Numbered from the stretch's first letter, positions 6,880 to 37,462 are shown. The stretch: DNA of 64,000 nt from a virus (IMGVR_UViG_3300028048_001169:96001-160000), one strand, 5' to 3'. Notes: generated by a model not told the origin, from the sequence alone. Numbers and translations: made by a program.

Positions 6880-8211
6880 ATGGAAAGCTACATGAAATTG
6901 CAGTATGATGAGAATAATAATCTTATCGTAGAAGATGAAGGAGGTATAAAGACATATCGTGAATACGATAAGCAGAATCATTTAATCAGTAAGAAACGTT
7001 GTCAGATGTTTGGTACTACAGAATTGCCGGTTAGTGTTGATATGTTTGTATATGATGGCGATTCAGATAAAGATTTGAGATTGATTAAGATCGTAGATTC
7101 TGCAGCTCATACTGTAACTCAAATCTATTATGCAGATCTCTATCCAGAAGGATTAGAACGTATTTTGAAAACGGTAACTAGAGATCGTAAGTTTGATGTA
7201 GACCCGGATACATCAGAACCTACTCAGACGATTAAAGATTATCATTTTGTTGTGGAGCCGGATACAACAGAAGTTCATATAACCAGAAATCTTGATGATA
7301 AGATTATATCTATCAAGACAGTTTCTTGTTATGAAAAATATAGAGCTAATCTGTATTGCAACGTTCCACCGTATGATAAGTATATATTCCCATACAACGA
7401 GAAACGTGTTGTATGGGAATATGGTAATCTAGAAAGTGGATATGCTACAACAGTTAATATAGTATATCTGTACAATAATAAATTGATTCGTAGCTCTGTT
7501 TCATCTATCACTAACGGTAATCAAGATAATATCCGGTATGTATACGATCAAGATATCTGGTATGTATATGATAAAGATGATTATTTATTATCATCACAAA
7601 TCTGTATTACAAGATCACCAGAAGCATCAGTAGATGAAGATGATACGATTGATATTTATTACTATTACTACGATGAATTCTATGGTGGTGAGCAAGCTTA
7701 TAGTATTGATCATTATCATAAAGCAAATAATAAGAGTCATAAGTACATCAGTTTCGCAGCTACACCAAGTGATGACAAATACGATATTACATTCTATCTA
7801 GATTCAGATATTGTTGATAAAACAAAGAGTTATCAGGTTGAATTGTTGAAAGATAAAGATGGTAATGTTGTATGGGATAAATTCACGTATAAGAATAGTC
7901 ACGATAGTAGAATATATCGCGACTATGATGAGAATCAAAATATTATTCGTGAAAAAGTAATTGCAAAATCAATGCCTGGTCAGCAAATTCTTGTTACAAA
8001 TGGTAATAAGAATATGAGTTACTATAAGTATAATGAAGCTAATAAACCTATCTTAGCTGTTCATCACATTGGTACTGCATATTACGTTGAGGAATATATT
8101 TATGATGAAAACAATAATTTAATAGAAGAGCTTAGAGCATCTGATGTCGAAGAAGCTAAAGAGATATACGAAAAGCTTAAAGAGGAGGTAGATGCTCGTA
8201 TTGACAAATAG
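6880..8211 (+). CDS. Tyr/Asp-rich protein with YD/RHS-like repeats
   Basis: Repeated YDENNNLI, YDKQNHLI, YDENQNII motifs; AAGGAGG RBS before ATG 6880. Confidence 0.65.
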   Translation: MESYMKLQYDENNNLIVEDEGGIKTYREYDKQNHLISKKRCQMFGTTELPVSVDMFVYDGDSDKDLRLIKIVDSAAHTVTQIYYADLYPEGLERILKTVTRDRKFDVDPDTSEPTQTIKDYHFVVEPDTTEVHITRNLDDKIISIKTVSCYEKYRANLYCNVPPYDKYIFPYNEKRVVWEYGNLESGYATTVNIVYLYNNKLIRSSVSSITNGNQDNIRYVYDQDIWYVYDKDDYLLSSQICITRSPEASVDEDDTIDIYYYYYDEFYGGEQAYSIDHYHKANNKSHKYISFAATPSDDKYDITFYLDSDIVDKTKSYQVELLKDKDGNVVWDKFTYKNSHDSRIYRDYDENQNIIREKVIAKSMPGQQILVTNGNKNMSYYKYNEANKPILAVHHIGTAYYVEEYIYDENNNLIEELRASDVEEAKEIYEKLKEEVDARIDK

Positions 8212-24440: not shown

Positions 24441-24565
24441 TATAGTATCCAATAGGGTATAAATCCCTATTGGATTTCTTGTTATTAAACTATTTTTGAA
24501 TCATATATTATAAGTGTGTAGTAGAACATAGAAATCAAACAATCATAGAAAGAGAGGTAGTTGAA

Positions 24566-25684
24566 ATGTTTGATCTATTTACAATGGCGGATCCGCTGAT
24601 TTTCTTTGAGGTAAGAAAAGCTGAGAGGGAAGCTAATCGAGCTTTAAAAGAATGCAAGAAGTGTGAGGAACGTGCAAAAGAGAAAAAAGAAATCCAGAAG
24701 TCAGTAAAGAATTTTAAGGACCACATCAATAATGTGAAACATACAAATAAAGATGTGGCTGAAGCAACCGGAACACCTTATACACCTGAGAATACTCCAG
24801 AAGATATTACAGAGCAAGCTGATAATATCAAGAAAGCAGCAGATACGATTCATGATATGCTGTATCCTGTTGTATATAATGATAATGAAGTTTCTGTAGT
24901 GCCAAATGAAGTATTTGAAGAGGATCGATTAGAAGATGTAAACAATGTACCTGAGCCAAAGTTAAAGAAGGAGATCAATGATGATCTTGTTGAAACTTTT
25001 GCAAAGGTATTACCAGGAGTTCCAGTTGTATTTGAAGCAACAGTAGATACTTATAATCCTAAGTCTGGTGGTGATTGTGGATTAGTAAAGATGCATGTAT
25101 TGCCGACCAAGACGACTTACTTTGTAGACCTGAACAATATCATGGGTGATGGTTATAATGTATTAATGACCAATCCGTATGATGGTAAATTGCTCTTTGT
25201 TAATACGGAGCGATGCCCTGAGTATATTCTGAAAGTAATAACAGAGGGATATACATTGACACCGGAAGATATCGTTCATATTAATGCTGGACGATTTGAT
25301 CCTGATATCTATCACTTCATAGATTTCTCTGGATTTGGTGATCATCTAAAGAATATGACTATGAAGGACAAAGAGCATCTTGAGTACACACTCCATAAAA
25401 TCATGAATCATGATTGGGAGAATGTATTAGGATATCCTCTGTATAGATGTCGTTTTGAATCTTATGCAGATACAGCAAACTTTACATTGATATCTGATAA
25501 GCATACAAGACATCAGAATGTCTTTACAGATCGAAAGTTGTATTCTCGATTCCGTAAGATGTATGTAACAAATAGCGAGTATGATCGCTATAATGAATAT
25601 TTCCGTATCAATGTAAAAGCAGGTAAAATTGTCGATGTTGCTAGAAATGGAGAAACAATTTCAGCCAAGGATCTTTATTTGTAG
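24566..25684 (+). CDS. Hypothetical early protein
   Basis: Early motif at 24501; GAGG RBS; 372 aa. Confidence 0.75.
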   Translation: MFDLFTMADPLIFFEVRKAEREANRALKECKKCEERAKEKKEIQKSVKNFKDHINNVKHTNKDVAEATGTPYTPENTPEDITEQADNIKKAADTIHDMLYPVVYNDNEVSVVPNEVFEEDRLEDVNNVPEPKLKKEINDDLVETFAKVLPGVPVVFEATVDTYNPKSGGDCGLVKMHVLPTKTTYFVDLNNIMGDGYNVLMTNPYDGKLLFVNTERCPEYILKVITEGYTLTPEDIVHINAGRFDPDIYHFIDFSGFGDHLKNMTMKDKEHLEYTLHKIMNHDWENVLGYPLYRCRFESYADTANFTLISDKHTRHQNVFTDRKLYSRFRKMYVTNSEYDRYNEYFRINVKAGKIVDVARNGETISAKDLYL

Positions 25685-26014
25685 AAAAATATTACAGCAC
25701 ACACATTAAAGTAATGAAATCATAAAAATAAACTTGCTAGTAGGATGTAATGAATTACGTAAAGAAATGTCTTGAATGGTTGTGATTCGAGAAATAGAGA
25801 TATGAAGTTGAACTGTAATTCAGTGGAAATATCCGATATACGAGCTTGTACTGTTATCGTCATTCATTACGGGTTAAACTAGATAATATAATACCAATCA
25901 ATTTCATCTTTACTATATTTTTGGTACATTGTTATATCCGCACACATATAAAAATAAAGCCATGTTTTTATTTAAGGGAGTAATTGATAGATAATAATTG
26001 ATTGGTATTATTAC

Positions 26015-26086
26015 TGGACTATAGCCAAGCGGTAAGGCCCAGGACTTTGACTCCTGTATTCCCGGGTTCGAATCCCGGTAGTCTAG
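26015..26086 (+). tRNA. tRNA-Gln(TTG)
   Basis: Cloverleaf, anticodon loop CTTTGAC, GGTTCGAATCC T-arm; no encoded CCA. Confidence 0.93.
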
Positions 26087-26402
26087 CGTAAAACGTTAAC
26101 TTAGTTTCGTTGTACAATCAAATCACACGCAAGGTGGAATTAGGTTTAAAAGGCAAGTGATCATTTGCTAATTCAGGTTGTAGGTATGCTCATTCCGACG
26201 TTCTCCTGAAATTAAAAATCTAAGACTTAGAGGTTGGACCTACAGGATTGTAGGCTCGAGTCTTAGGTTTTATTTTTATGATTAAGGGTTTAGGAACAGT
26301 AAAATCGGGTTAAAATGTTCTGGCTGTTAATAATATAATAATAATCGTTGAAATTAATCATTTGCGGTAAACATTAACGGCTTCTCCGATCTCCTTTATT
26401 TA

Positions 26403-26483
26403 GGGTAGGTAGCGAATCGGCAAACGCGGCGGACTGTAAATCCGTTTCCTATGGAGTAGTGGGCTCGACACCCACCCTGCCCA
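26403..26483 (+). tRNA. tRNA-Tyr(GTA)
   Basis: GGACTGTAAATCC anticodon arm, long variable arm; T-loop has CTCGACA. Confidence 0.9.
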
Positions 26484-26741
26484 TTGGTAAATTGTTACAT
26501 TTTTACTTATTTTCTGTAACAATTTACCAAAAGGTTCTTTTTAATGACTCGGACTTACGATGGCTCTTAGGTTCGAGTCACAAAGTACTAGCTCATTCGT
26601 GGTTTTTTCCTTTTTCTCTTAACCACGAAGAGTACCCATCCTTTTACGTTACCGCGATGTATATACATCAAAAACTTATTTATGTTACGTTACCATACAT
26701 AAATAGCTGCTCTAGAGTTTAGCGTTTAAATAGAGCAATTT

Positions 26742-26815
26742 GGACCTTTAGCTCAGTTGGTTAGAGCAACCGGCTCATAACCGGTCGGTCCTGGGTTCGA
26801 GTCCCAGAGGGTCCA
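26742..26815 (+). tRNA. tRNA-Ile2(CAT) (lysidine type; Met not excluded)
   Basis: GGACCTTTAGCTCAGTTGGTTAGAGC...GGCTCATAACC resembles Firmicute tRNA-Ile2. Confidence 0.88.
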
Positions 26816-26823
26816 TTTAATAT

Positions 26824-26895
26824 GGCTCGTTGGTCAAGCGGTTAAGACATCGCCCTTTCACGGCGGTAACACGAGTTCGATTCTCGTACGAGTCA
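26824..26895 (+). tRNA. tRNA-Glu(TTC)
   Basis: GGTCAAGCGGTTAAGAC D-arm; CCCTTTCACGG anticodon arm. Confidence 0.93.
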
Positions 26896-26977
26896 TCTCT
26901 AGGTACTTGGACACTATCTAGAGAAAATGCATTTTCTTTTAGGGCGTGAGTAGCTCTCCTCACACAAAATTTGCCAT

Positions 26978-27050
26978 AGCGTAGTAATTCAATGATAGAA
27001 TACAAATCAATTTGATTTGAAATTATAGGTTTAATTCCTATACTACGCTA
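26978..27050 (+). pseudogene. tRNA-like element / pseudo-tRNA
   Basis: All four stems pair, but the anticodon loop (CAATTTG) lacks U33, the T-loop is TTTAATT and the D-loop GG is lost. Confidence 0.6.
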
Positions 27051-27184
27051 TTAGAACCACACTCCTATGGTTCTAACTCCATCCAATTCTATGCTTGAGT
27101 AATAGATGTTTATATTCTGAGAGTATTTTTACTTAAATTTATGCTGTTTTCAGGTAAATTTTGAATTGACATCTATTACTCTAT

Positions 27185-27257
27185 GGGCCTATAACTCAGT
27201 TGGCAGAGTACATGATTTTTAATCATGATGTCTTGGGTTCGAATCCCAATGGGCTCA
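27185..27257 (+). tRNA. tRNA-Lys(TTT)
   Basis: CATGA-TTTTTAA-TCATG anticodon arm; GGTTCGAATCC T-arm. Confidence 0.9.
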
Positions 27258-27528
27258 GTTGGTTCTATTATATTCAGTTCTACTACACGTTTGATATTGC
27301 TTTTGTCGAAGTTATCCATAGTATTAAACGCTCCTTGATTTGCTTTGAATATAATAGAGCCTAAGAAAAGAAAACAGTGCCTATCCATACAAAATCCATC
27401 AAACTGTTTTCTTTTTTTCTGGACTAGGGGAATTTTGGTTGGTCCCCTTTGTTATTACCTCATACATTTTTTATCTATAGGGATTGGTTACCCCTATAGA
27501 TAAAAATATGTCTTTTCTCTATATAGAA

Positions 27529-27540
27529 AACATACTATTA
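27529..27540 (+). promoter_or_regulatory. Late-type promoter AACA-N6-TA
   Basis: AACATACTATTA upstream of the giant tail gene; same spacing at 53660, 54926, 61621 and (minus strand) 52988-52999. Confidence 0.65.
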
Positions 27541-27574
27541 ATATATTCTATATAGAGAAGGAGGGTATATTCTA

Positions 27575-30500
27575 ATGGCTAATTTATTTGGAAATAATAA
27601 GCGTAAAACCCCAGATCGCTTTACCAAAATCAATGCATTAACTTATGCTCGTAATGTTGGTAAATCATTTGGTTATGCTTTTATTGACAATTTTAACAAC
27701 ATGGCTCCTACAACAGCAGCACTGTTGAAAGAGTCAAATGATTTAAAGAATGAGATGTTTGCAAATATCTCTAGCTTTAAATCTAAGGCAACTGATTTTG
27801 ATAAATCCGGTACAGCTAGTATTGTACTAGAAGGAGCCAAGGACTTCCGCAATAATTTAGTTGCAGATATTCGTAATGGTACTTGGTATAATAAACAAAG
27901 AATCGAAAAGGCTAATGATGAAATAGCAAGTGATGCTTTCGGTATTAGCTTAGATGACTTTGGTGATTTTGATAGTGATTTTGATTTCGATACAGGTGAT
28001 GATATGGACTTCGATACAGATGTAACTGTATCGGCAGAAGAAGCTAATGCTAAAGCAATATCTAGTGCTGTATCAGAAGCATCCCAAAGAGCAGCAGGTG
28101 CTGTTTCAATGGCAACTGCACAATCTGCAGAATATGTAGTAACTTCAAATAGAGCTAATACAAAGGCTTTATATAATGGCATGACTTCAGGATTTGGTAA
28201 GATCAATGTAGGTCTTGCTGCCATTAATACGAATATATCTGCTTTGATGGAGCTGGGCAAACCATTAACTGATCATATGCAGAATAGTTCCAAATTCTAT
28301 ATTGCTACTTCTCAATATCAAGAAAAGTCATTAGCATTATTGGAACAAATTGCAAAGAATACTACTCCTCCAGAAATTAAGCGTAAATCTGCTAAGAAAG
28401 GTACTACTATAAATGATCTTGTAACAGCTGATGGATTATTAGACATTAGTGCATACAAGGATTTTGTACAGACTCAGTTTAAGGACATGACTTCCATGTT
28501 TACTTCTAGTCTTGATATGATTGGCGGAGCTAAGAATGGTATGAAGATGCTTACAGCATCTCCAGGACAATTATTATTACCATTCTTAACTGGTCAGTTA
28601 TTTAATATACGTGGTAGCAAAACTAATCGTACATTAAAACAGGCTATATCTGGATTTGATAAAGCTTTATCTGGAATGGCTACTGGATTGATGGCAAAGG
28701 CTAAAGCAACAGACTTTAGTGGTATGGGAATGATTGGTGAACTCTTAAATGTATTAAGAGATAACTTTATTCCTAATTCTGGATTAAAGACTAAGATTAA
28801 TACTGGTAACTATGTAAAGGGTAGAGTTGATTGGACTGGTAAAGCAGATAAAGCATTACGAGAAGTAATTCCTACACAATTAGGAAAGATCTTATCTGCT
28901 ATTACTGGAGAACAAGCTAGAACCTTTGATTATGAAACTGGTAAATGGGTTCCTATCAAGGATATAGAGACAGATGCTCATAATCGTAAGATGAGAGCTG
29001 CTCGATCTGCAGGTGGAGATTTCTTTAGTGATATTAAATCATCAGTTAATAAGTCTAATATGACTAAAAAAGGTAAAGAAGCCTATAATGAGCAGGTAGA
29101 TGCTTTCTTAATGAAGATGATGATGAATGACAGTCAAGACTTCATTAAACTTACTGATGATAGATTCTGGAGAGAAAGAGGCTCTGAATATAAGGACGTT
29201 ATTTCCGAGAAAGTATTTAAAGATTTCCAGAAGAGGGCAAAGGCTGTTGCTAGACGTAATCCTGGTTCTAGAAGTGAGTTAGCTTCTAATTTCTATAGTG
29301 CTAGAGCATCTTATGGTAGAGGAACAGAGAATTCTGATAACTTAGAATATATGCTTCATAATGGATCTATGGATTTTGGTAATAAGCAATCTATGGGTCT
29401 TAGAAGATTAGATGAGTTTGATAAAGATAATTTGTTCTATCTCAGAGGTATCTATACTTATACTGGTTATCTTGCTAATAACTTTAAATACCTTATACCT
29501 GGAGTAGATACAGGTGGATTTAATAGTAATATGGTTGTATTGGAAGGATTCCCAGATCCTACAAAATCCAACAATAATATTGGTAAAGTTAATAATAGGG
29601 CTAAGAAGAAATCTGCTCCTAGAGGAAACATGAAGATGTCCTCTGATGTAGATGCAGATTTAGATGCTGTTTATAGATATAATGAAGATACCGATGAAGA
29701 TGCTTTCTTAGATTCTTTAGGTGATGAACTTAGAGAATATTATGAGAAATCTAAAAGAGGTGAAGTTGATAAAGATCCTACAAAGGATAATAAAATCGGT
29801 TTAGCTCGTAGTGCTTATAAGAGGAAGAATGATGTTCGAGGTAAGATAGGAAACGCTTATCGTAAGATAGCAGATTCTGATTCTAGAGCTGGAAAAATCT
29901 TATCAGCATTCGAGAATACATTGGATGTAACAACAGATAGTGTTAGTGATATGCTTGATAGTGTATCCAGAGGCATCAATGACTTTGTTTATGGTAAGCC
30001 AGGTCAAGAAAAGGGTACTTCTATTGCTGATACAGTAAAGACTGGATTACGGTCTATTACAGATGCATTGGTGGATAACGTTAAAGTATTCTTACCAGAT
30101 TTCGTTGTTGATTTTGCTACAAGTATTTGGAAATCTATCAATGAAAATGAGCATGTAAAGAACTTTAAAGAGAAAACTAAAGGTTCATTGAAGAATGTAG
30201 CTAAGTGGTTTGTTCCTCAAAAAGTAAGAGAGTTCTTTAGTGGTAAAGAAGAGGAACCTCAAGCAGAAGCAGAAGGTGCTAGTGGTTCTGGTTTATTCGG
30301 ATCATCTTTATTCAATACAGTATACGCTGCTCAGAATAGTATCTTTACTGGTTATGCTGGTGGCGCTAGTAGAAGAAATAGAAGCAATACAAAAACTAAT
30401 ACGAAGACTAAGAGTGAATATAATAACTCTAAGAAGAAAAATCGTAGAGGTAAACGTCAAAGCCGATCTGGTGCCAATAGATCAAAAGTAAATGCAGGTG

Positions 30501-33500
30501 CAGATGACGATGCAGCTGCCGCGGATGAGGTGATTGAAAGAGCCTCTGATAAGATTGCTAGATTTATGACAGATAAATTATCAGGATTTATCGCTGATCA
30601 TAATCCTAAGACTGAAAAAGAAACCATCCAGAATAATATCAATAAGATGCTGAAAGAAGCTGATATTGGTGCTATGGGTGCTGGTGCTGTTATTGGTGGT
30701 GGATTATCATTAGTAACAGGTGCTTTCTTAGGACCTATTGCTGCTGCTGGTGTTGGAGCTGCAATTGGATTTGTAACAAAGTCCAATACTGCTCAAGAAT
30801 TACTCTTTGGTAAATTAACCACTGATGAAGATGGTAACGTTAGTCGTGAAGGTGGAATTGTAAAGAAAGATCTTGCCAATTTCATAACGAAAAATGTACC
30901 TTCTATGGCTAAAGGAGGCGGAATTGGTGCAGTAGCAGGAACATTCTTAGGATCACCATTACTCGGATCTATCGTTGGTGCTGGTATTGGATTCGTTAGT
31001 TCTTCAGAGAATGCTAAGAAGACATTATTCGGTGACTTAGTAGAAGAAGTAGATGAGAATGGTAATACACATAAAGTAAGAGCCGGTGGTCTTGTATCTA
31101 AGAAGATTCAAGATATGGTTAAGAAAGGTGCCTTTGGAGCTTCAGCTGGAGCTGCTGCTGGATTATTAATAGGACCATTTGGACCTGTTGGTAACTTAAT
31201 GGTTGGTTCTGCTCTTGGATTTGCATCTACAACAGATAAATTCCAGAAATGGTTCTTTGGTGATAAAGATGAAAATGGTAAGTTCAAATTCGGTAAAGGT
31301 GGTTTCTCTGAAAAGATCCGAAAAGAAATGTTTGAGCCTATCGTTGGTATCTTTGATAAGCTTAGTAAGAGAATTACAGAACAGATCAAAGAATTAGGCC
31401 ATACATTTAAGAAGTGGTTAAAGCAATTTATTCTTAAGAAAGTACTTGGTGGATTAGCTACTTGGATCTTTGGTAAAGCAAAGATTGGTAGAGCAATTGC
31501 TAGTGCTGGTAAAAAAGTTGCTACTGGTGCATGGAATATTATTACTAAGCCAGGACAGATGATTAATAATGCTCTTGAAAGAGGTAACCTTGCAAAGGGT
31601 TATGGTATTGAAAATACAACATCTGTAGAACGTAACTTAATGCGTGCTGGTTTTAGAGTTCAAGAAGATGGTACCGTTGTAGATCGTAATGGTAACTTAG
31701 CATTCAACAGTATTCAAGAAGCAGCTCAATCTGGTATAGCAGCGCATGGAAAAGCTGCCAATACAATGGGTGCTAGAATTGATACAGCATTACAGTTATT
31801 CACTGATCCGGAAGAAGCAACGAAACTTAGAACTCTTCTTGGTCAAGCTAATAGTGATGAACAAGCTCAGTTATCAGCTCGTATCAAAGGATCTACTGAT
31901 CTTTATGGTCAATTATTCAAGATTCAGCGAGAAGATGACAATAAAGCAAAAGCTGCTAGTAATTTACAGAAGTTATTTGCTAATGGTAGAATCAAAGGTA
32001 CAACTGAAGAAGAGGTAGCTGAAGAACTTCGTATGCTGATGAATTCCAGAAATGGATTCATGAAGAATCGTTATAAAGATAATGAGAAGTTTAGCGAAGA
32101 AGATATCTCTGGTTTATCTAAACTTATTAGCAATGCTAATAAGAACATTGCAAATGCTAATACAAATGCTAGAAGCAGTGTTGTTGAGATGATTTCTGGT
32201 AAGATGCGTGAAGCTGGTTATACCGATGCAGAAATCGAAAGATTTACCAAGGGTAGCAAGAGTGATAAATACTTAATGAGAATGGCTTCTCAGTTAGGTG
32301 TCAATATTAAACGAATGGAAAAAGATGGTGCTAAGACTGTTGATTCCGTTGTTATTGATACAATCCCTGGACTGCTCCAGAATATTAAGAACGCTATTAC
32401 AGAAGGTGTAAGTACTATTACTCAAGATACAAAGACTGGTGTAACGAAACTTGCAACAGGAATAGAAAGAATTTACAACCATTTCCGTTACGGTAAAATG
32501 GGAGATGCAATGAATGATCTCTATTCTGATGTAGGTGATGTTGCTGGAACAGTATCTAGACTTCCTGGAGATCTATTCAACTTAGGTAGAACCGGTGTTA
32601 AAGGTGTATCTGATGCTACCAGAGAAATGTATGGAGAGTACTTAAAGGAACAAACCAAGAAGTATCAAAGCAAAAAAGCTGCTAGAGCTAACAGATACAA
32701 AGAGCATACAGATACAGCAGGTTCTGGATCTGGATTATTTGGATTTGGCGCTGGTGGCGGAAAGGTACGTAACCAGTTTGGTACGTTAGTAGATAGTAAT
32801 GAAGATATCGCTTCACAACAACGTAAGAAAGATACTGCAATGCGAAACAATGCGTTGTTTAGTATTAGTTCTATGGGCGGTGGAGTTTCTTCTCTTGTAT
32901 CTGGAATGAATAAGATTGTAAGTGGTTTATTCGGAGACAAGAAAGAAAAGAAGAAATCATTATTCTCTAAACTTACTGAATTAATCACTGGTGGTACTGG
33001 ATTACTCGGCGGATTATTATCAGGTATCTTTGGCTTCTTTGGTGGAGGCGGATTATCAAGTGCCTCTGGTATCGTTGGTAAAGTGCTCAATGCATTTGGA
33101 GGTAAAGGTGCTTTCAGTAATATCTTACGTGGTGCTTTAATTGCAACTGTAGGAACTGGTATCGTTAAAGGTACTTATGATACATTAGCAAACAGAGTAA
33201 CTAATGGTGCTATTGGTCGTGGATATGGACAAATGGGCACTTCATCTAATGCTAGTTACACTGGATTAACTGCTATGGATGCTAGTGGTAATATGGTAGC
33301 TGTTGCTATGGATGGTAATGGTAATCCTGTTACGGATGAGAATGGTAACTATATATCTACAAATGGTCAAGCATTAGATCCTTCTAGAACACAAGTTACA
33401 GAATCTTATGCTACTAGATCTCTTGGTGAGCGTGAACGAGATAAGATTGGACGTACTTTGCTCACATATGGTCCAAAGAAAGCATTCAAGAGTAGTATTG

Positions 33501-36500
33501 CTGGATTTGGTGTTAATAAGATAGCTAAGAGTCTTAAGTTAGATAAGTTAGCTGGAACTAAAGTTGGTCAAAAAGTAGTTGGTGCTGCTAAGGATAAATT
33601 TAATACCTTATTAGGAAAGGGTATTATCAATAGTAAACTTGGTACCAAACTTGCTGGTAGATATGAAGCAAAAGTTGCAAAAGAAGCTGCTGTAAAGCGA
33701 GCTAAGGATATTTCGAAACATTCTGTTCAGAAAGCCATTGCTCGTCATAATAGAAAGCTTATGAAACGTGGAAGCGAGAAGCTTGTAGCAGAATCAACAC
33801 AATCTGCTATGAAGAAGATCGCTAAAGATGCCGCTACAGAAACTACAAAGAATAGTGTATATAACGGCATTAAAGAAGGTCTCACCAAAGCGTTTAATAA
33901 GATTTGTACAGTAATTCCTAAATTCAAAGGTCAGCAAAAAGTATTAGCTGGAGCAGCTGATGACATTGCAGAGGCTGCTGCTAAAAAGGCTGCTAAGCAA
34001 ACAGGTGAAGCTGCTGCTAAGATTGCTGCTAAAGTTGCAGCTGGCTTTGTATGGTTTACAAAAATTGCATTTGTAATTTCAGATTTCTGGTCTGGTTATG
34101 AAGATGCTACAACAACATGGAAGGTTAAAAAAGCTAGTACTTCTCAGAAGTTAATTAGTGGATTACTTCGTGTTGTATTAAACCTCAATCCATTAATTGG
34201 TATGCTTCTTCCTGATTCTTTAGTTATGGATATTCTTATTGATACAGTTGCACCTATCTTAGGAATTGATGTACGAAAGATCAAGAGTGAGAGAGCTGCT
34301 GCTGAAGAAGAGTTAAAAGAATACAATGAAGCTAACGGTACTAATTATTCTTGGAGTGAGTATAATAAACAAGTACTTGGAAATTATACAACTGGAGAGA
34401 AAATTGGTAACTGGTTCAAAAATACATTCACTAGTGTCAAGAATGTATTCACTGGTGGCAAGAAGTCTTCAAAAACACAGAAAGCATCTAATACTGCTAC
34501 AAAAGCAACTGGTGCTAGTGGATCTGGCTTATTAGGATATGCTGGTGGTAGTAGTGGACGCCGTACAGCTGCACCTAGCATTGGATTAGATCGTATTACA
34601 ACTGGAGTTGGTAATTACTTAGGTAATGATATTGACTCTAAGAGTATGAGAGATCTGAGCAAGATGTATGATGATATGGAAAAAGCTGCAAAGCATGGAA
34701 ATATCACTGGTGTAACAAAAGCTAGCGAACGTACTATGAAGAAGCTGAATGCTAAGAATTCTGGTATGAGTCGTACCTTTGGTATTATCAGTAAGCTTGG
34801 TATGTTTGCTTATACATCTACTGCTATGATGAATAAGTTTACTGCTAAGGATAGTGTTGTTTCATCAACAACTTCTGAAGTAACTGGTACTGATGATACT
34901 TCTAATGGTAAAGGTAAATCTTCATCTAAGAATGGTAAGGGTATCCTTGGTACAATTGGCGGAGCTATTGTTAGTCTTGGAAAGACAATTTCTGGTTGGT
35001 TTGCTGGTAAAGGTTCAGGATTAACTGGTTATGCTGGTGGATCTTCTGAAGTTGTTTCTCAGTTAGATAGTAAATATTCCAATATTTCTGTTGGTGGTAA
35101 GTCTATGGCTGAGAATGGATGTGGACCTGCATCTGCTGTTATGGCATTGGATTCTCTTGGTAAATCATCTTCTGTAAGCAGTGCTGCTAGTATTGCTAAT
35201 AATTATCAGGTTACTGGAGGAACTGATGCATCTTACTTCCGTGATATGTTTAGTCGTAATGGTGTAGACTCTAGCTATGTACAAGGCGATGGAGTTAAAT
35301 CTGCAGTTGCTAGTGGAAATCCTGTTGTATTAATGGGACAAGATTCTAGCAATACAAGTAAAGCAAATTCACCATTTGGACCTAATAATCACTACGTTGT
35401 TGCTAATGGATACGATAGTAATGGTAACATTAATATCAGTGATCCAGAAACAGGTAACCATTCTTATAGTCCAAGTATTCTTGATAACGTTAAGATTGGT
35501 ATTGCTGCATCAGGTAGTAGACGAAGAAGAAAGCGTAACAATACGTCTTCTAGAGCTAACCATGCTGTTCATTTTGCTGCATCTGGTAGCAAAAAGAATA
35601 ACAAGACAAAGGGTGGAGCTCTTAAAATGACCATGGAGAACTGTAGAAAAGAGAATCTTGGTGTATGGTCAGAACCTACAGTAGAAGAACTCAATGCATT
35701 TATTAAGAAGAAAAACCCAACATCTCCATTCAATGGACATGGTGACGTATTTATTCGTGCTGGTAAAGCTTCTGGACTTGATCCTAGATATATCTTAGCT
35801 CATGCAGCTTTTGAATCAGCTTGGGGTACTTCTAAAATCTGTAGAGAGAAGAATAACTACTTTGGTATCGCTGCCTTCGATAGTAATCCATATAATTCTG
35901 CCAAGAGATTTGGATCTGGATTAGAAGCTGGAATTATTGGAGGTGCATGTTGGATCGCTGAGCATTACTATCACGGTTCTTATGATCAAACATGTATCTA
36001 TAAGATGAGATGGAATAACAACGTACACCAATATGCAACTGATCCAAAATGGGATACAAAGATTGCTGGTCTTATGGCTAAAATGCCTGCTAATACCAAA
36101 TTGACTTTAGCAAAGGGTGTAAAGAGCACTGTATTAAGTAGTCTGGGTGAGAGTGGATCATCTGTTTCTGGAGATGCATCTGGTGGTGTATCTGGTGATG
36201 CTACTGGTTCTTCAAGCAATTCTTCATCTACTGGATTACTTGGTTCTATCATCAATACATTCAGCAATGCTTTTGGTAAAGTCTTTGGAGGTAATGAAGA
36301 ATCTTCTGATGATTCATCATCTTCTTCATCTGATAGTGGTACTGCAAATGGTGCTGATTACACGAATTCTATCAAAACTGCAACTACTGCTGAAGGTAAA
36401 GCATTAGCAAATAGCTTTATTAATAAAGCTGCTAGTAAGATGGATTACGTTGAAGGAGCTGGAAATGATACAATGTTTGGTAAGTTTATGGGTGTAAATA

Positions 36501-37462
36501 AACAACCTTGGTGTGCATCATTTGTAAGCTGGGCAATGTCTGAAGCTGCTGGTGGAAAAGATAAAGCTGCTGTACCTTTACGTGGTCCTGTATCTGCATC
36601 TGTAGATGGATTATGGAGTAACTTCAAATCACATAATGCAATGACTTCAAATCCTGCTCCTGGTGATATCGTTATCTATAAGAACGGAACTTCCCACACT
36701 GGTCTTGTAGAGAAGGTAGAAGGAAATAAGATTACTACAATCGAAGGTAATACTTCTGGTGGTAATGGATTTAGTCGTAACGGTGGTATGGTTGCTCGTA
36801 AGACATTTACACTAGGAGATGGAAGCTACAAAGCAAAGCATCTTACTGGATTTGGTAGACCTGATTGGGATAATGGATCTACTGCTGCTAAAGCTGAAAA
36901 GAAGAAGCAGAATAAACGTAAGAAGCAAATGGAAAAGCATGGTACGAATGTATCTACTACAAAGCAAACTTCATTTGGTACAGTTCCTAATTACACAAGT
37001 TCCAGCTTAGGCAGTAACATGATGAATTATACCATTCCGAAAGTAGCTAAAAAGGGTGGTAAAGGATCTGGTCTTATTGGATATGGTGGCGGAGCTAGTG
37101 GATCAACTGGAAGAGTTATGCTTGATTCATCTGTATTTTCAGGTGCTATTTCTAAAGCAGAAAATACCAAAAAGGTTGGTAGTAGATCAACTACTAAGAC
37201 TGGTATCATGACATCTATGTCAAAAGACTCAGCTGCTTTACTCAAGATTATTATTGAGCTAATAACAAGTATTGTACAGAATACAGATCGTATTGAAGGA
37301 ATCTATTCATTACTTGAAACTTATTGTAATAGATCGGGTAATGCTGAACTTCAAAATGCTGTTAAGGAACAAAAGTCATCTTATGTTCCTAGAGAAACAT
37401 CTAATAATTTAGATAGTTTAGCAGATCTTCGTAGAATGTGTGATGCTATATTAGCAGGTTAA
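27575..37462 (+). CDS. Giant (3295 aa) tape-measure-like/tail-associated lytic protein with C39 peptidase, GH73 glucosaminidase and CHAP domains
   Basis: Gly/Ala-rich helical and glycine-zipper segments; SQLD..Y...GCGPASAVMA...HYVV (C39); HAAFESAWG..NNYFGIAAFD..YATDPKW (GH73); PWCASFVSW..HTGLV..TIEGN (CHAP). Confidence 0.88.
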   Translation: MANLFGNNKRKTPDRFTKINALTYARNVGKSFGYAFIDNFNNMAPTTAALLKESNDLKNEMFANISSFKSKATDFDKSGTASIVLEGAKDFRNNLVADIRNGTWYNKQRIEKANDEIASDAFGISLDDFGDFDSDFDFDTGDDMDFDTDVTVSAEEANAKAISSAVSEASQRAAGAVSMATAQSAEYVVTSNRANTKALYNGMTSGFGKINVGLAAINTNISALMELGKPLTDHMQNSSKFYIATSQYQEKSLALLEQIAKNTTPPEIKRKSAKKGTTINDLVTADGLLDISAYKDFVQTQFKDMTSMFTSSLDMIGGAKNGMKMLTASPGQLLLPFLTGQLFNIRGSKTNRTLKQAISGFDKALSGMATGLMAKAKATDFSGMGMIGELLNVLRDNFIPNSGLKTKINTGNYVKGRVDWTGKADKALREVIPTQLGKILSAITGEQARTFDYETGKWVPIKDIETDAHNRKMRAARSAGGDFFSDIKSSVNKSNMTKKGKEAYNEQVDAFLMKMMMNDSQDFIKLTDDRFWRERGSEYKDVISEKVFKDFQKRAKAVARRNPGSRSELASNFYSARASYGRGTENSDNLEYMLHNGSMDFGNKQSMGLRRLDEFDKDNLFYLRGIYTYTGYLANNFKYLIPGVDTGGFNSNMVVLEGFPDPTKSNNNIGKVNNRAKKKSAPRGNMKMSSDVDADLDAVYRYNEDTDEDAFLDSLGDELREYYEKSKRGEVDKDPTKDNKIGLARSAYKRKNDVRGKIGNAYRKIADSDSRAGKILSAFENTLDVTTDSVSDMLDSVSRGINDFVYGKPGQEKGTSIADTVKTGLRSITDALVDNVKVFLPDFVVDFATSIWKSINENEHVKNFKEKTKGSLKNVAKWFVPQKVREFFSGKEEEPQAEAEGASGSGLFGSSLFNTVYAAQNSIFTGYAGGASRRNRSNTKTNTKTKSEYNNSKKKNRRGKRQSRSGANRSKVNAGADDDAAAADEVIERASDKIARFMTDKLSGFIADHNPKTEKETIQNNINKMLKEADIGAMGAGAVIGGGLSLVTGAFLGPIAAAGVGAAIGFVTKSNTAQELLFGKLTTDEDGNVSREGGIVKKDLANFITKNVPSMAKGGGIGAVAGTFLGSPLLGSIVGAGIGFVSSSENAKKTLFGDLVEEVDENGNTHKVRAGGLVSKKIQDMVKKGAFGASAGAAAGLLIGPFGPVGNLMVGSALGFASTTDKFQKWFFGDKDENGKFKFGKGGFSEKIRKEMFEPIVGIFDKLSKRITEQIKELGHTFKKWLKQFILKKVLGGLATWIFGKAKIGRAIASAGKKVATGAWNIITKPGQMINNALERGNLAKGYGIENTTSVERNLMRAGFRVQEDGTVVDRNGNLAFNSIQEAAQSGIAAHGKAANTMGARIDTALQLFTDPEEATKLRTLLGQANSDEQAQLSARIKGSTDLYGQLFKIQREDDNKAKAASNLQKLFANGRIKGTTEEEVAEELRMLMNSRNGFMKNRYKDNEKFSEEDISGLSKLISNANKNIANANTNARSSVVEMISGKMREAGYTDAEIERFTKGSKSDKYLMRMASQLGVNIKRMEKDGAKTVDSVVIDTIPGLLQNIKNAITEGVSTITQDTKTGVTKLATGIERIYNHFRYGKMGDAMNDLYSDVGDVAGTVSRLPGDLFNLGRTGVKGVSDATREMYGEYLKEQTKKYQSKKAARANRYKEHTDTAGSGSGLFGFGAGGGKVRNQFGTLVDSNEDIASQQRKKDTAMRNNALFSISSMGGGVSSLVSGMNKIVSGLFGDKKEKKKSLFSKLTELITGGTGLLGGLLSGIFGFFGGGGLSSASGIVGKVLNAFGGKGAFSNILRGALIATVGTGIVKGTYDTLANRVTNGAIGRGYGQMGTSSNASYTGLTAMDASGNMVAVAMDGNGNPVTDENGNYISTNGQALDPSRTQVTESYATRSLGERERDKIGRTLLTYGPKKAFKSSIAGFGVNKIAKSLKLDKLAGTKVGQKVVGAAKDKFNTLLGKGIINSKLGTKLAGRYEAKVAKEAAVKRAKDISKHSVQKAIARHNRKLMKRGSEKLVAESTQSAMKKIAKDAATETTKNSVYNGIKEGLTKAFNKICTVIPKFKGQQKVLAGAADDIAEAAAKKAAKQTGEAAAKIAAKVAAGFVWFTKIAFVISDFWSGYEDATTTWKVKKASTSQKLISGLLRVVLNLNPLIGMLLPDSLVMDILIDTVAPILGIDVRKIKSERAAAEEELKEYNEANGTNYSWSEYNKQVLGNYTTGEKIGNWFKNTFTSVKNVFTGGKKSSKTQKASNTATKATGASGSGLLGYAGGSSGRRTAAPSIGLDRITTGVGNYLGNDIDSKSMRDLSKMYDDMEKAAKHGNITGVTKASERTMKKLNAKNSGMSRTFGIISKLGMFAYTSTAMMNKFTAKDSVVSSTTSEVTGTDDTSNGKGKSSSKNGKGILGTIGGAIVSLGKTISGWFAGKGSGLTGYAGGSSEVVSQLDSKYSNISVGGKSMAENGCGPASAVMALDSLGKSSSVSSAASIANNYQVTGGTDASYFRDMFSRNGVDSSYVQGDGVKSAVASGNPVVLMGQDSSNTSKANSPFGPNNHYVVANGYDSNGNINISDPETGNHSYSPSILDNVKIGIAASGSRRRRKRNNTSSRANHAVHFAASGSKKNNKTKGGALKMTMENCRKENLGVWSEPTVEELNAFIKKKNPTSPFNGHGDVFIRAGKASGLDPRYILAHAAFESAWGTSKICREKNNYFGIAAFDSNPYNSAKRFGSGLEAGIIGGACWIAEHYYHGSYDQTCIYKMRWNNNVHQYATDPKWDTKIAGLMAKMPANTKLTLAKGVKSTVLSSLGESGSSVSGDASGGVSGDATGSSSNSSSTGLLGSIINTFSNAFGKVFGGNEESSDDSSSSSSDSGTANGADYTNSIKTATTAEGKALANSFINKAASKMDYVEGAGNDTMFGKFMGVNKQPWCASFVSWAMSEAAGGKDKAAVPLRGPVSASVDGLWSNFKSHNAMTSNPAPGDIVIYKNGTSHTGLVEKVEGNKITTIEGNTSGGNGFSRNGGMVARKTFTLGDGSYKAKHLTGFGRPDWDNGSTAAKAEKKKQNKRKKQMEKHGTNVSTTKQTSFGTVPNYTSSSLGSNMMNYTIPKVAKKGGKGSGLIGYGGGASGSTGRVMLDSSVFSGAISKAENTKKVGSRSTTKTGIMTSMSKDSAALLKIIIELITSIVQNTDRIEGIYSLLETYCNRSGNAELQNAVKEQKSSYVPRETSNNLDSLADLRRMCDAILAG

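Follow-up and report, generated by a model that had tools for sequence, protein, structure and literature searches.

What fills the long spacers between the tRNA genes of a large phage, and on what do they act? The question is raised by a phage from the cattle rumen, with a genome of 225 kb, whose five tRNA genes are set apart by long spacers in a 1.9-kb region (25685-27574) between a 372-aa gene and a giant gene for a 3295-aa virion-type protein; the region is among the two largest non-coding stretches of the genome. Coordinates are those of the window, that is, the whole 64,000-nucleotide stretch of DNA analysed here. The phage resembles AR9 and encodes RNA polymerases of its own; its host is probably Gram-positive, a rumen Firmicute to judge by the CHAP and glucosaminidase domains. 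The 1.9-kb stretch is a phage tRNA operon, probably of early timing, and its genes and gene-like elements are as follows:

26015-26087, + strand: tRNA-Gln(UUG), by ARAGORN and Rfam; CCA not encoded
26403-26483, + strand: tRNA-Tyr(GUA), by ARAGORN and Rfam; CCA not encoded
26741-26816, + strand: tRNA with a CAU anticodon (Met by ARAGORN), by ARAGORN and Rfam
26823-26897, + strand: tRNA-Glu(UUC), by ARAGORN and Rfam
26976-27051, + strand: AT-rich tRNA-like cloverleaf closed by an 11-bp stem; its anticodon loop, CAAUUUG, is aberrant
27184-27258, + strand: tRNA-Lys(UUU), by ARAGORN and Rfam; CCA not encoded
27575-37462, + strand: gene of the 3295-aa virion-type protein, with C39-like peptidase, glucosaminidase and CHAP domains

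The CAU tRNA and tRNA-Glu are separated by 6 nt (the pair spans 26741-26897), and CCA is encoded by none of the five tRNA genes. The tRNA-like element (26979-27049) gives a weak Rfam tRNA match of 38.2 bits and no ARAGORN call, and its fold has a z-score of -5.2. Neither an RNase III nor a CCA-adding enzyme was found among the products of the phage genome. The reading that we favour, with a probability of about 0.55, is that the spacers form closed stem-loops with roles in cis: in processing, end protection, termination and the timing of the giant gene.

A first-pass annotation of this DNA had pointed to five inverted repeats between and around the tRNAs. All five are present, together with two further perfect stems and a number of other hairpins, and the spacers can be laid out from 5' to 3' as follows:

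25747-25870, + strand: long-range 13-bp stem of GTAATGAATTACG with CGTCATTCATTAC, closing a fast-evolving interior of 98 nt
25888-25903/25996-26011, + strand: perfect 16-bp stem enclosing 92 nt, 3 nt before tRNA-Gln (dG -27.7, z -3.4)
26088-26212, + strand: conserved 125-nt element carrying UUCUCCUGA, a candidate small RNA
26215-26282, + strand: compound, terminator-like hairpin (dG -24.1, z -4.9), then UUUUAUUUUUAU
26484-26499/26515-26530, + strand: perfect 16-bp stem with a variable loop, directly after the discriminator base of tRNA-Tyr (z -7.8)
26545-26580, + strand: hairpin, the first of five in 26545-26737; the first two have z-scores of -5.7 and -6.0
26591-26633, + strand: hairpin with the loop U6CCU5CUCUU, the second of that pair
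26656-26669, 26676-26706 and 26708-26737, + strand: three hairpins (segment 26650-26740, z -2.4), the last stopping 3-4 nt before the CAU tRNA
27052-27075, + strand: 8-bp hairpin with the loop CACUCCUA, then ACUCCAUCC (z -4.4)
27097-27109/27169-27181, + strand: perfect 13-bp stem (14 bp folded) with a branched 59 nt inside, 2-3 nt before tRNA-Lys (z -5.8)
27261-27276/27346-27361, + strand: 16-nt arms, 94% complementary, perfect core of 13 (z -5.3); 16-17 bp folded, enclosing 69 nt that include CUCCUUGAUUU, 2 nt after tRNA-Lys
27363-27378/27403-27418, + strand: 16-nt arms, 94% complementary, perfect core of 13 (z -5.8)
27426-27447, + strand: folded hairpin GGGGA...UCCCC, ahead of the 15-bp stem at 27468-27506
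27468-27482/27492-27506, + strand: perfect 15-bp stem, beyond the five first described
27515-27528/27546-27559, + strand: perfect 14-bp stem, likewise beyond the five

These stems are far in excess of expectation. The tRNA region has seven perfect stems of 13 bp or more, compared with a mean of 0.008 in 500 dinucleotide shuffles and with 16 in the whole 225-kb genome. Fold z-scores range from -3.4 to -7.8 in 11 of the 15 segments and from -3.0 to +0.3 in the remaining 4. The hairpins also keep close to the tRNAs, since at six of the eight tRNA-adjacent spacer ends a hairpin lies within 4 nt, compared with 2.07 under random placement (P=0.001). The arm sequences of the different stems are mutually unrelated.

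The spacers are represented in RNA libraries. Contigs identical to the window were recovered from RNA libraries for 25472-25984, 26100-26367, 26500-26632, 26858-27090 and 27272-27479, and the spacer contigs have word depths of 12-154, compared with 2.9 for the sole contig of the giant gene; this support consists of Logan contigs from two libraries of one rumen sample, which are blind to ends, strand and true levels. The tRNAs themselves, 26633-26737 and 27091-27271 have no such cover. RNA runs X17-X20, with small shares of the words, do not enter into this support.

Inverted repeats packed so densely into one of the genome's two largest non-coding stretches might also be a DNA-level element, in which cruciforms or protein-binding palindromes mark a replication origin, a packaging site or a recombination hot spot and the tRNAs are incidental. 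We regard this as highly improbable. The presence of the region in RNA libraries speaks against it, the mutually unrelated arms offer no repeated protein site, and cumulative GC skew changes monotonically and shows neither an extremum near 121-124 kb nor an origin signal. Further counter-evidence comes from the way in which the stems vary. Relatives were drawn from a protein index; searches of IMG/VR and JGI contigs (by protein or DNA pattern) and of GTDB genomes gave no useful ones. When the stems predicted in the window were followed through six relatives, 47 variant pair states were found, and pairing on the + strand, which is the tRNA strand, is kept in 31. Twenty-one of these 31 are kept only as G.U, which is C.A on the opposite strand, and 6 are of the opposite kind, pairing only on the - strand (binomial P=0.006). 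A palindrome would not be expected to show such a + strand bias, and DNA palindromes are disfavoured for that reason. Double compensatory changes account for 4 of the variant pair states.

Divergence is likewise distributed according to the predicted structure. From the 86% relative, the window differs at 12.3% of paired and 22.2% of unpaired positions (Fisher P=0.001), at 17.1% of four-fold sites in the adjacent gene and at 1.1% of tRNA positions; from the 96% relative, it differs at 2.6% and 6.5%, respectively (P=0.001). Because unpaired positions diverge at about the neutral rate and paired positions less, selection falls on the closing stems and not on the loop sequences. The spacers are RNA structures under selection on the + strand.

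The individual stems bear this out. In the stem at 25747-25870, one pair is T-A in the window, T.G in relative L006 and C-G in L010, and another goes from A-T to G.T, while part of its interior (25800-25860) is the most diverged block. The stem at 25888-26011 shows C-G to U.G and A-U to G.U in L010, and in the same relative the hairpin at 26215-26282 has three double compensatory changes, including the replacement of the inner stem CUACA/UGUAG by CUAUG/CAUAG. In the hairpin at 26484-26530, a G-C pair has become A-U in L006 (a double change) and G.U in L022, and an A-U pair has become G.U in L010, with substitutions and indels between relatives in its loop. Stem changes in the hairpins of 26545-26737 are mostly G.U. 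Within the 13 bp of the stem at 27097-27181, L022 and L024 show A-U to G.U and G-C to G.U, and sequencing-run variants with 27169 A>G give U.G. The stem at 27261-27361 has A-U to G.U in L024 and G.U to G-C in L023 and L024, and the hairpins of 27426-27506 have G-C to G.U in L022. One module can be lost altogether: a natural variant, L004, lacks 26216-26397 and with it the hairpin at 26215-26282 and two CTCC sites, so this module is dispensable.

The architecture reaches beyond recognizable sequence. In L020, whose giant-gene N-terminus is 45% identical, tRNA-Gln is followed by 1.5 kb of non-coding DNA that contains five perfect stems of 11 bp or more (expectation 0.12), and local alignment of its spacers with those of the window finds no similarity except tRNA-Gln. 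The spacer architecture persists in L020 without sequence similarity. L020 also carries a giant tRNA-like element (6896-7045) with a T-arm beside its closing stem. In the distant giant-gene homologues L016-L019, protein genes lie upstream and no tRNAs are found there.

Hairpins of this kind might nevertheless be debris, left by decayed tRNA genes or mobile endonucleases and without present function, as the degenerate tRNA-like element at 26979-27049, the T-loop-like GGYTCGAGTC words at 26252 and 26571, the T-arm relics and the HNH gene beside the tRNA-Gln of L020, and the turnover implied by the L004 deletion would suggest. Yet purifying selection acts on the paired positions, where compensatory changes are seen, perfect 13-16-bp stems stand about 1000-fold above expectation, hairpins lie flush with tRNA ends, and the same architecture recurs in L020 despite the absence of sequence similarity. 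We consider debris improbable.

The reading that the stem-loops work in cis can be set out as a sequence of steps. The operon lies downstream of an AR9-like early-promoter motif at 24501, and selection has shaped its spacers into a chain of closed stem-loops, in which the stems are functional and the interiors drift. We infer cuts by RNase P and RNase Z, a possible involvement of RNase III, end protection, terminator functions and the promoter assignments from sequence and predicted folding. Host RNase P would cut the 5' ends of the tRNAs and host RNase Z the 3' ends, the latter being assigned because no tRNA encodes CCA. Since the stems are flush with the tRNA ends (mostly 0-4 nt), such cuts would yield near-blunt stem-loops; the first-pass annotation had likewise supposed that RNase P/Z maturation frees the spacer RNAs, and the flush stems agree with that supposition. 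The stems would hold the AT-rich spacer RNA in a self-folded state with defined, exonuclease-resistant ends. Once RNase P had cut, the hairpin at 25888-26011 would close the upstream mRNA fragment at its 3' end, and processing intermediates would remain as stable by-products comparable to RNA C and RNA D of phage T4.

Two considerations temper the processing steps. Classical RNase III substrates are longer than the 13-16 bp of these stems, which counts against a role for this enzyme, and a structured leader 2-3 nt away from the site of RNase P might hinder cleavage just as readily as promote it. An insulation test gave a mixed picture: the tRNA-Lys cloverleaf has a pair probability of 0.92 in the native context and 0.58 with shuffled flanks, the native context beating 95% of the shuffles; tRNA-Tyr and tRNA-Gln fold slightly better in their native context, and for the Met and Glu tRNAs, which lie close together, the native context is the poorer one.

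Termination may be served by two of the hairpins. Only at 26215-26271, with UUUUAUUUUUAU, and at 27363-27418, running into U7, is a stem followed by a run of U; in the hairpin at 27363-27420, it is the 3' arm of a 16-bp A/U-rich stem that does so. The hairpins at 26215-26282 and 27363-27420 would serve as intrinsic terminators or attenuators. A scan for sigma-70 promoters and terminators found nothing above shuffle level, and these two hairpins escape a simple terminator scanner because their stems are AT-rich. The signals on which transcription of the operon and expression of the giant gene may depend are the following:

24501-24512, + strand: TCATATATTATA, early-promoter-type motif preceding the 372-aa gene; no other copy lies closer to the tRNAs on their upstream side
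27511-27562, + strand: hairpin with a 3' arm that extends into AAGGAGGG, the Shine-Dalgarno sequence (SD) of the 3295-aa gene
27529-27540, + strand: AACA-N6-TA, AR9-type late-promoter motif inside the loop of that hairpin

The first of these, TCATATATTATA, is a copy of the genome's most over-represented intergenic motif, as found by k-mer enrichment in intergenic DNA. It has six exact + strand copies in the window, none of them inside 25685-27574, and it resembles the AR9 early consensus AAATATATATTAT-(6N)-G (PMC5312081). It is a probable early promoter, used by the virion RNA polymerase if its likeness to AR9 is a guide. The AACA-N6-TA at 27529, a putative late promoter by its match to the AR9 late consensus (PMC5312081), is a short motif: AACA-N6-T[AG] occurs upstream of 26 of 221 genes and in 9 of 221 control windows.

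Taken together, the hairpin at 27511-27562 and the motif in its loop suggest a timing device for the giant gene, which we propose is insulated from the tRNA operon. Read-through RNA of the window is predicted to fold at -19.1 kcal/mol with the SD (AAGGA) paired, compared with -4.6 for RNA from 27540. Late transcripts starting in the loop would miss the 5' arm and would be translatable. In L020, CUCCUUUAUU pairs with AAUAAAGGAG, the SD of the giant-gene homologue, an AACA-N6-TA lies between them, and the predicted folding energy is -36.8 kcal/mol (z -5.5) for read-through RNA, in which AAUAAAGGAG is paired, and -2.2 for late-start RNA. In folding models, then, an upstream arm is shown to pair with the SD in two divergent relatives, the window phage and L020. 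In T4, the SDs of genes e, soc, 49 and I-TevI are sequestered on early read-through RNA, with late promoters within the structure (PMC3014915). As modelled here, the locus is like T4 gene e in that a late gene (here one with lysin domains) has its SD paired with a hairpin's 5' arm and in that the late-promoter motif lies inside the structure, so that late transcripts would be without the inhibitory arm. It is unlike gene e in having the AR9-like AACA-N6-TA in place of T4's TATAAATA, and in being predicted from sequence and folding in two relatives.

A different role had been proposed for the spacers at the outset, namely that tRNA maturation releases a battery of antisense RNAs whose anti-SD and anti-AUG sequences block translation initiation on host or early phage mRNAs. 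The complements quoted in its favour do exist: CTCCTTGATTT (27331-27341) is complementary to AAATCAAGGAG before the start at 6880, and TTATTACCTC (27452-27461) to GAGGTAATAA before the starts at 8809 and 44655. As a class, exact complements to ribosome-binding sites (RBSs) are at chance level, with an opposite-strand control that is equal or nearly so. Against 221 RBS windows, the spacers have 26 complementary 10-mers (15.6 +/- 5.1 in shuffles, P=0.03; reverse-complement control 22) and 9 complementary 11-mers (4.1 +/- 2.8, P=0.08; control 9).

Short motifs give a mixed answer, in which a modest anti-SD-like excess over shuffled background is seen and essentially no anti-AUG excess. CTCC occurs 7 times (2.3 in shuffles, P=0.01), CTCCT 5 times (0.9, P=0.004) and CCAT 8 times (3.8, P=0.03); CCTC, CCTCC, ACCTC, CCTT, CCTTT and CAT are not enriched in the spacers relative to shuffles. 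The mean best duplex energy to the 221 RBS windows, -17.97, is slightly better than the -16.81 +/- 0.30 of shuffles, in a comparison with few of these (13) and no accessibility term, and the best sites cluster in pyrimidine tracts (26600-20, 27320-40, 26940-60, 26200-20 and 26380-400), several of them in loops or linkers. The CUCCU enrichment and the slightly better RBS pairing are left over by a purely cis model. Small genes on the minus strand that would use CTCCT sites as SDs were also sought; the candidates were limited to one ORF of 6 codons and one of 47 codons antisense to tRNA-Lys, and the idea was rejected.

These observations bear on the broader idea that stem-loops released by RNase P/Z act in trans on host molecules, as regulators with anti-SD or C-rich loops, as sponges, as decoys or as counter-defence RNAs. 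To the excess of CTCC and CTCCT and the duplex energies may be added, in its favour, that spacer RNA is present in the libraries and that the 3 CTCC sites checkable in the 86% relative are all retained there. The hairpin at 27052-27075 is the most sRNA-like anti-SD presentation of the region: its loop CACUCCUA presumably resembles the C-rich, SD-targeting loops of Firmicute sRNAs, and its CUCCU is retained in L022-L024, even after insertion of CU in L024. The nearly invariant block at 26088-26212 resembles a functional RNA, and 3'ETS-leuZ of E. coli, a tRNA external transcribed spacer that serves as an sRNA sponge, is a tRNA-spacer RNA with a trans role. The RBS complements at chance level count against it, as do the lack of enrichment of CCTCC, CCTC, ACCTC and CAT, the loss of two CTCC sites in L004 and the drift of loops, which differ in sequence and length even between close relatives and whose unpaired positions diverge at about the synonymous rate (22%, compared with 17% at four-fold sites). 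A generic anti-SD would, moreover, strike the phage's own RBSs; because these are also of the AAGGAGG type, such a tract could not separate host from phage mRNAs. We judge action in trans to be possible but unlikely. The evidence supports a translation-blocking antisense battery weakly: the selected RNA structures, the RNA-library contigs and the modest CUCCU excess agree with it, and the chance-level complements and drifting loops do not. The sole anti-SD pairing with independent support is the one predicted in cis, on the downstream giant gene.

The block at 26088-26212 stands apart from the stem-loops. Compared with the 86% relative, it has two substitutions and one 7-nt deletion; it has no Rfam match and no ORF, and consensus folding makes no covariation visible, the sequence being too conserved. 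It is not accounted for by the cis model. A still more speculative proposal, which we hold to be rather doubtful, is that the tRNA operon also serves to manufacture small RNAs of the phage: exonuclease-resistant stem-loops freed by RNase P and Z would act in trans, along with the 125-nt RNA of 26088-26212, during takeover of a Gram-positive rumen host. If this were true, the CUCCU loops could titrate SDs or an SD-binding factor, or the RNAs could decoy host RNA-targeting defences.

Among known systems, the closest to the cis stem-loops favoured here are rnaC and rnaD of phage T4, whose products, RNA C and RNA D, lie in the T4 tRNA cluster and have unknown roles (PMC3014915); E. coli RNase III participates in T4 tRNA maturation (PMC4810235). 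T4 rnaC (species 1) and rnaD (species 2), like the present locus, are structured non-tRNA RNAs a few nucleotides from tRNAs on the same strand, and in the T4 annotation they are of about 120-140 nt and co-processed with the tRNAs. The L020 element at 6896-7045 is like the rnaC fold in having a T-arm next to its closing stem. The differences are that about a dozen hairpins are found here and two RNAs in T4; that most hairpins here are simple long stems with unconserved interiors, not tRNA-like, and the folds are unlike; and that here an AR9-like phage, equipped with RNA polymerases of its own, probably infects a Gram-positive host. A blastn search of the region against 50,697 phage records (INPHARED) matched tRNAs only and gave no similarity to rnaC or rnaD. 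Karamvirus VPA32 and the Bacillus phages Hobo and Bc431v3, among seven other phages compared, including T4 (six by stem count), also have long perfect stems in their tRNA clusters. The locus joins a descriptive class of structured spacers in phage tRNA operons, not a sequence family.

Two further comparisons can be drawn. In MHV-68, pre-miRNA hairpins lie immediately 3' of tRNA-like units and are cut out by tRNase Z, and for both these units and 3'ETS-leuZ, by-products of tRNA processing (by RNase P, E or Z) are functional RNAs. Bacteria are not known to have miRNA machinery, and unlike in these systems, selection at the present locus is on stems and not on single-stranded seed regions. The MHV-68 tRNA-like genes are listed in PMC4810235. 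The large ornate RNAs of the GOLLD, ROOL and manA type are similar in being structured non-coding RNAs adjoining phage tRNA genes, and the rumen is the habitat behind the name of ROOL (PMC12286853). Unlike these, the locus is a string of independent hairpins with drifting interiors and not one conserved multi-pseudoknot fold, and cmscan found no Rfam match to them, with only tRNA reported at the gathering threshold in the window and at E<=1 in 25600-27600.

The non-tRNA RNAs of phage tRNA clusters have been unexplained for decades, and this locus is an unusually clear case. With stems constrained, loops free and stems set against the tRNA ends, the indications are that selection acts on the closing helices and not on an antisense seed. 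With its SD-occluding hairpin and the late-promoter motif in the loop, the locus would carry the timing device of T4 gene e to AR9-like jumbo phages. For annotation, the long "empty" spacers in phage tRNA clusters deserve treatment as RNA genes or RNA-processing modules.

The locus is a 1,890-bp non-coding stretch (25685-27574) in a 225,070-bp IMG/VR virus record of 33% G+C, of which the window covers bases 96001-160000, and the runs that contain it are nearly all bovine gut or rumen metagenomes. Its 5' neighbour is a gene for a 372-aa protein without known family; its 3' neighbour, the giant gene, encodes a 3,295-aa protein with C39-like peptidase, glucosaminidase and CHAP domains. The features referred to are as follows.

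26015-27258 (outer limits), + strand: five tRNA genes found by ARAGORN, namely tRNA-Gln-UUG, tRNA-Tyr-GUA, a CAU (Met) tRNA, tRNA-Glu-UUC and tRNA-Lys-UUU
26979-27049, + strand: AT-rich tRNA-like element, found by Rfam only (38 bits)
27468-27506, + strand: extra perfect stem from an inverted-repeat search
27515-27559, + strand: extra perfect stem from the same search
27511-27562, + strand: last hairpin, in whose predicted fold UCUUU...CUCUAUAUAGAA pairs with UUCUAUAUAGAG-AAGGA

All five inverted repeats that the first-pass annotation had named between the tRNAs were recovered at the positions given, in addition to the two extra stems listed. In a count of maximal perfect Watson-Crick stems (loop no longer than 110 nt), the tRNA region has seven of at least 13 bp, against a mean of 0.008 in 500 dinucleotide shuffles; the whole genome holds 16 such stems, and 44% of them sit in the 0.8% of the genome that is the tRNA region. 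Fold z-scores ranged from -3.4 to -7.8 in 11 of 15 segments and from -3.0 to +0.3 in the other four, including 26088-26212. The structural observation is solid. The hairpins are also placed close to the tRNAs: at six of the eight tRNA-adjoining spacer ends a hairpin lies no more than 4 nt away, compared with 2.07 when the same hairpins are randomly repositioned inside the same spacers (P=0.001).

In Firmicute-type hosts, the 3' ends of tRNAs without an encoded CCA are made endonucleolytically by RNase Z. Since CCA is encoded in none of the five tRNAs, RNase Z would make their 3' ends, and because the hairpins are flush with the tRNAs, cutting by RNase P and RNase Z would yield stem-loops that are near-blunt. 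The 16-bp hairpin 25888-26011 would then form the 3' end of the upstream mRNA fragment, and the spacer products may persist, as T4 RNA C and D do. We favour, at a probability of about 0.55, the reading that the spacers of this tRNA operon are cis-acting modules for processing, stability, termination and occlusion.

Direct scans gave no relatives; close relatives were reached via a protein index and then aligned. One contig of 244 kb (L012) is identical; L022 is 96% identical over the whole region, L006 to L009 94% and L010 and L011 86% over the first 1.1 kb, and L023 and L024 96-98% over the last 0.73 kb. L004, a natural variant from a different run, is 95% identical with window 26216-26397 deleted; the deletion, whose junction at L004 positions 7640-7660 (window 26215/26398) falls between two similar CTCCT..ATT(T)A words, removes the terminator-like hairpin together with most of the leader of tRNA-Tyr.

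When stems predicted from the window alone were scored in these relatives, + strand pairing was kept in 31 of 47 variant pair states. Four are double compensatory changes, one in the hairpin after tRNA-Tyr (G-C to A-U) and three in 26215-26271, two of which turn the inner stem CUACA/UGUAG into CUAUG/CAUAG. One pair of the stem 25747-25759/25858-25870 is U-A, U.G and C-G across three relatives. Changes to G.U that would be C.A on the other strand outnumber the reverse kind by 21 to 6 (binomial P=0.006). Against the 86% relative, the tRNAs diverge by 1.1%, paired spacer positions by 12.3% and unpaired ones by 22.2% (Fisher P=0.001); four-fold degenerate sites in the adjacent gene diverge by 17.1%. 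The G.U asymmetry, the compensatory changes and the difference between paired and unpaired positions show that the spacer structures are selected at the RNA level on the tRNA strand. Pure evolutionary debris sits poorly with pairing kept in this way and is highly improbable; a function of the inverted repeats at the DNA level, which the G.U asymmetry speaks against, is less credible still. The helices are the selected parts and the loops behave neutrally, which is the main argument against loops as antisense seeds.

Directly 3' of tRNA-Gln lies a 125-nt block (26088-26212) conserved almost like the tRNAs, with two substitutions and one 7-nt deletion separating it from the 86% relative. Neither an ORF nor an Rfam match was found in it, and it varies too little for a fold test; we regard it as a candidate new small RNA. 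That some RNAs, including this nearly invariant block, act in trans is a minority possibility, to which its conservation lends some weight and the neutral loops do not.

The first-pass annotation had gone further, proposing that tRNA maturation releases a battery of antisense RNAs directed at Shine-Dalgarno (SD) and AUG sequences. Both complements that it quoted are present. We took 221 putative ribosome-binding site (RBS) windows genome-wide by a crude SD-based rule and searched the spacers for exact complements to them. These numbered 26 for 10-mers (shuffles 15.6 ± 5.1, P=0.03) and 9 for 11-mers (4.1 ± 2.8, P=0.08), while the reverse-complement spacer strand, which cannot be the RNA, gave 22 and 9; chance alone is thus expected to supply an 11-nt match to some RBS. 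As for the words said to recur, CTCC (7 vs 2.3 expected, P=0.01), CTCCT (5 vs 0.9, P=0.004) and CCAT (8 vs 3.8, P=0.03) exceed shuffles, whereas CCTC, CCTCC, ACCTC, CCTT, CCTTT and CAT show no enrichment in the spacers. CTCCT occurs 3.2 times per kb in the tRNA region, 1.2 in other intergenic DNA and 0.5 in coding DNA. The mean best duplex energy to RBS windows was -17.97 vs -16.81 ± 0.30 (13 shuffles only, accessibility term absent), with the best sites confined to a few pyrimidine tracts. The excess of anti-SD-like pyrimidine tracts is modest and real, and nothing in it is specific. Structured RNAs from tRNA processing are plausible; the antisense battery is unsupported, as the loops drift and the complements are at chance level.

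Two RNA libraries from one bovine-rumen sample gave contigs identical to window 25472-25984, 26100-26367, 26500-26632, 26858-27090 and 27272-27479; neither ends nor strand can be read from them. Word depth is 12-154 in these contigs, against 2.9 in the sole giant-gene contig. DNA carry-over would hardly produce a gap of 4- to 50-fold inside a single phage genome, and the contigs weakly favour transcription and persistence of the spacers. One contig spans from within the 372-aa gene to 25984. The top over-represented intergenic word of the genome, (A/T)CATATATTATA, resembles the early-promoter consensus of the Bacillus jumbo phage AR9, AAATATATATTAT-(6N)-G (PMC5312081), and for this reason the phage is taken to be AR9-like. 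The word has six exact + strand copies in the window as TCATATATTATA, each before genes (6819, 10492, 13885, 24501, 40613 and 44241); that at 24501 precedes the 372-aa gene, and no early-type motif lies within the tRNA region. The tRNAs probably make up the distal part of an early operon. Within it, 26215-26282 and 27363-27420 look like intrinsic terminators or attenuators, and AR9 RNA polymerases stop at predicted terminators (PMC5312081). In L004 the leader of tRNA-Tyr follows immediately on 26215, which shows that the first terminator-like module is dispensable in nature.

The predicted pairing of the last hairpin (27511-27562) would occlude the start of the giant-gene SD. The AR9 late-promoter consensus is AACA-(6N)-TA/G, its last base being the transcription start (PMC5312081). 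Here AACA-N6-T[AG] lies upstream of 26/221 genes vs 9/221 intragenic control windows, with a peak 30-50 nt before the start codon, and the hairpin loop holds a fitting AACA-TACTAT-TA (27529-27540). Predicted folding gives -19.1 kcal/mol for read-through RNA and -4.6 kcal/mol for RNA from 27540, which is without the 5' arm. Two distant relatives, L020 and L021 (45% identity over the first 500 residues of the giant protein, with an upstream SMC-like gene in common), have tRNA-Gln, then 1.5 kb of non-coding DNA, then the giant-gene homologue. Except for tRNA-Gln, this 1.5 kb has no sequence similarity to the window, but it is rich in perfect stems, with five of 11 bp or more (against an expected 0.12) and two of 13 bp or more (against 0.007); the plan is kept without the sequence. 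In L020, CUCCUUUAUU (7889-7898) is predicted to pair with the SD AAUAAAGGAG (7979-7988), the two arms enclose a terminator-like hairpin as well as an AACA-N6-TA motif, and predicted folding energies are -36.8 kcal/mol (z -5.5) for read-through and -2.2 for late-start RNA. As both genomes share this arrangement, the sole anti-SD pairing with comparative support would act in cis. The same arrangement is known for T4 genes e, soc, 49 and I-TevI (PMC3014915), and occlusion makes sense for a gene carrying lysin domains.

L020 also has a 150-nt cloverleaf-like element (6896-7045) closed by an 8-bp stem, with two long arms and, beside the 3' strand of that stem, a canonical T-arm (GCAGGUUCAACUCCUGC). 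It is called by no tRNA finder, and it is much like the fold predicted for T4 rnaC.

The tRNA-like element at 26979-27049 has 27% G+C, is without G18G19 and C56, has an anticodon loop CAAUUUG without U33, and has its closing stem extended to 11 bp. Possible identities are a pseudo-tRNA and a tRNA mimic that does not decode. We take tRNA-Gln-UUG, tRNA-Glu-UUC and tRNA-Lys-UUU to be 2-thiouridine-34 tRNAs, and the CAU tRNA, with its G1-C72 pair and D-arm, looks more elongator- or tRNA-Ile2-like than initiator-like. Logan contigs of all relatives end inside this CAU tRNA (L006-L010 at ~26775-26790). The CAU and Glu tRNAs draw hundreds of foreign contigs in every run, and assemblies of this phage therefore tend to fragment at the tRNA cluster. 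tRNA-Lys and tRNA-Tyr are known targets of anticodon nucleases and retron Eco7 (PMC4810235; PMC12673091), and the phage set may replace tRNAs cleaved by host defences.

Structured spacers in phage tRNA clusters are of a known kind. In T4, rnaC and rnaD are annotated small stable RNAs that adjoin tRNA-Arg and whose roles are still unknown (PMC3014915), and E. coli RNase III participates in T4 tRNA maturation (PMC4810235). Phages also carry GOLLD and ROOL RNAs close to tRNA islands (PMC12286853), but the models of these RNAs give no match in this tRNA region. Among the few other phage tRNA clusters that were sampled, Klebsiella Karamvirus VPA32 has long perfect stems of 16 and 15 bp on the tRNA strand, Bacillus phage Hobo has five that reach at least 11 bp, and Bacillus phage Bc431v3 has one of 16 bp that stops 14 nt short of the first tRNA (L025:257-304) and one of 11 bp flush with tRNA-His (L025:1789-1849); the clusters of Phass-1, T5-like TS3 and Arash have no long perfect stems. 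The loop of the 16-bp hairpin of Bc431v3, an unrelated phage, is UUUCUCCUCCGAUUUUC and holds an anti-SD-like CUCCUCC. Long perfect stems number ~4.6 per kb of spacer here vs 0-2 in the sampled phages. What makes the present locus distinctive is this stem density, the evidence of selection that points to stems and not loops, and the tie to a putative read-through occlusion device.
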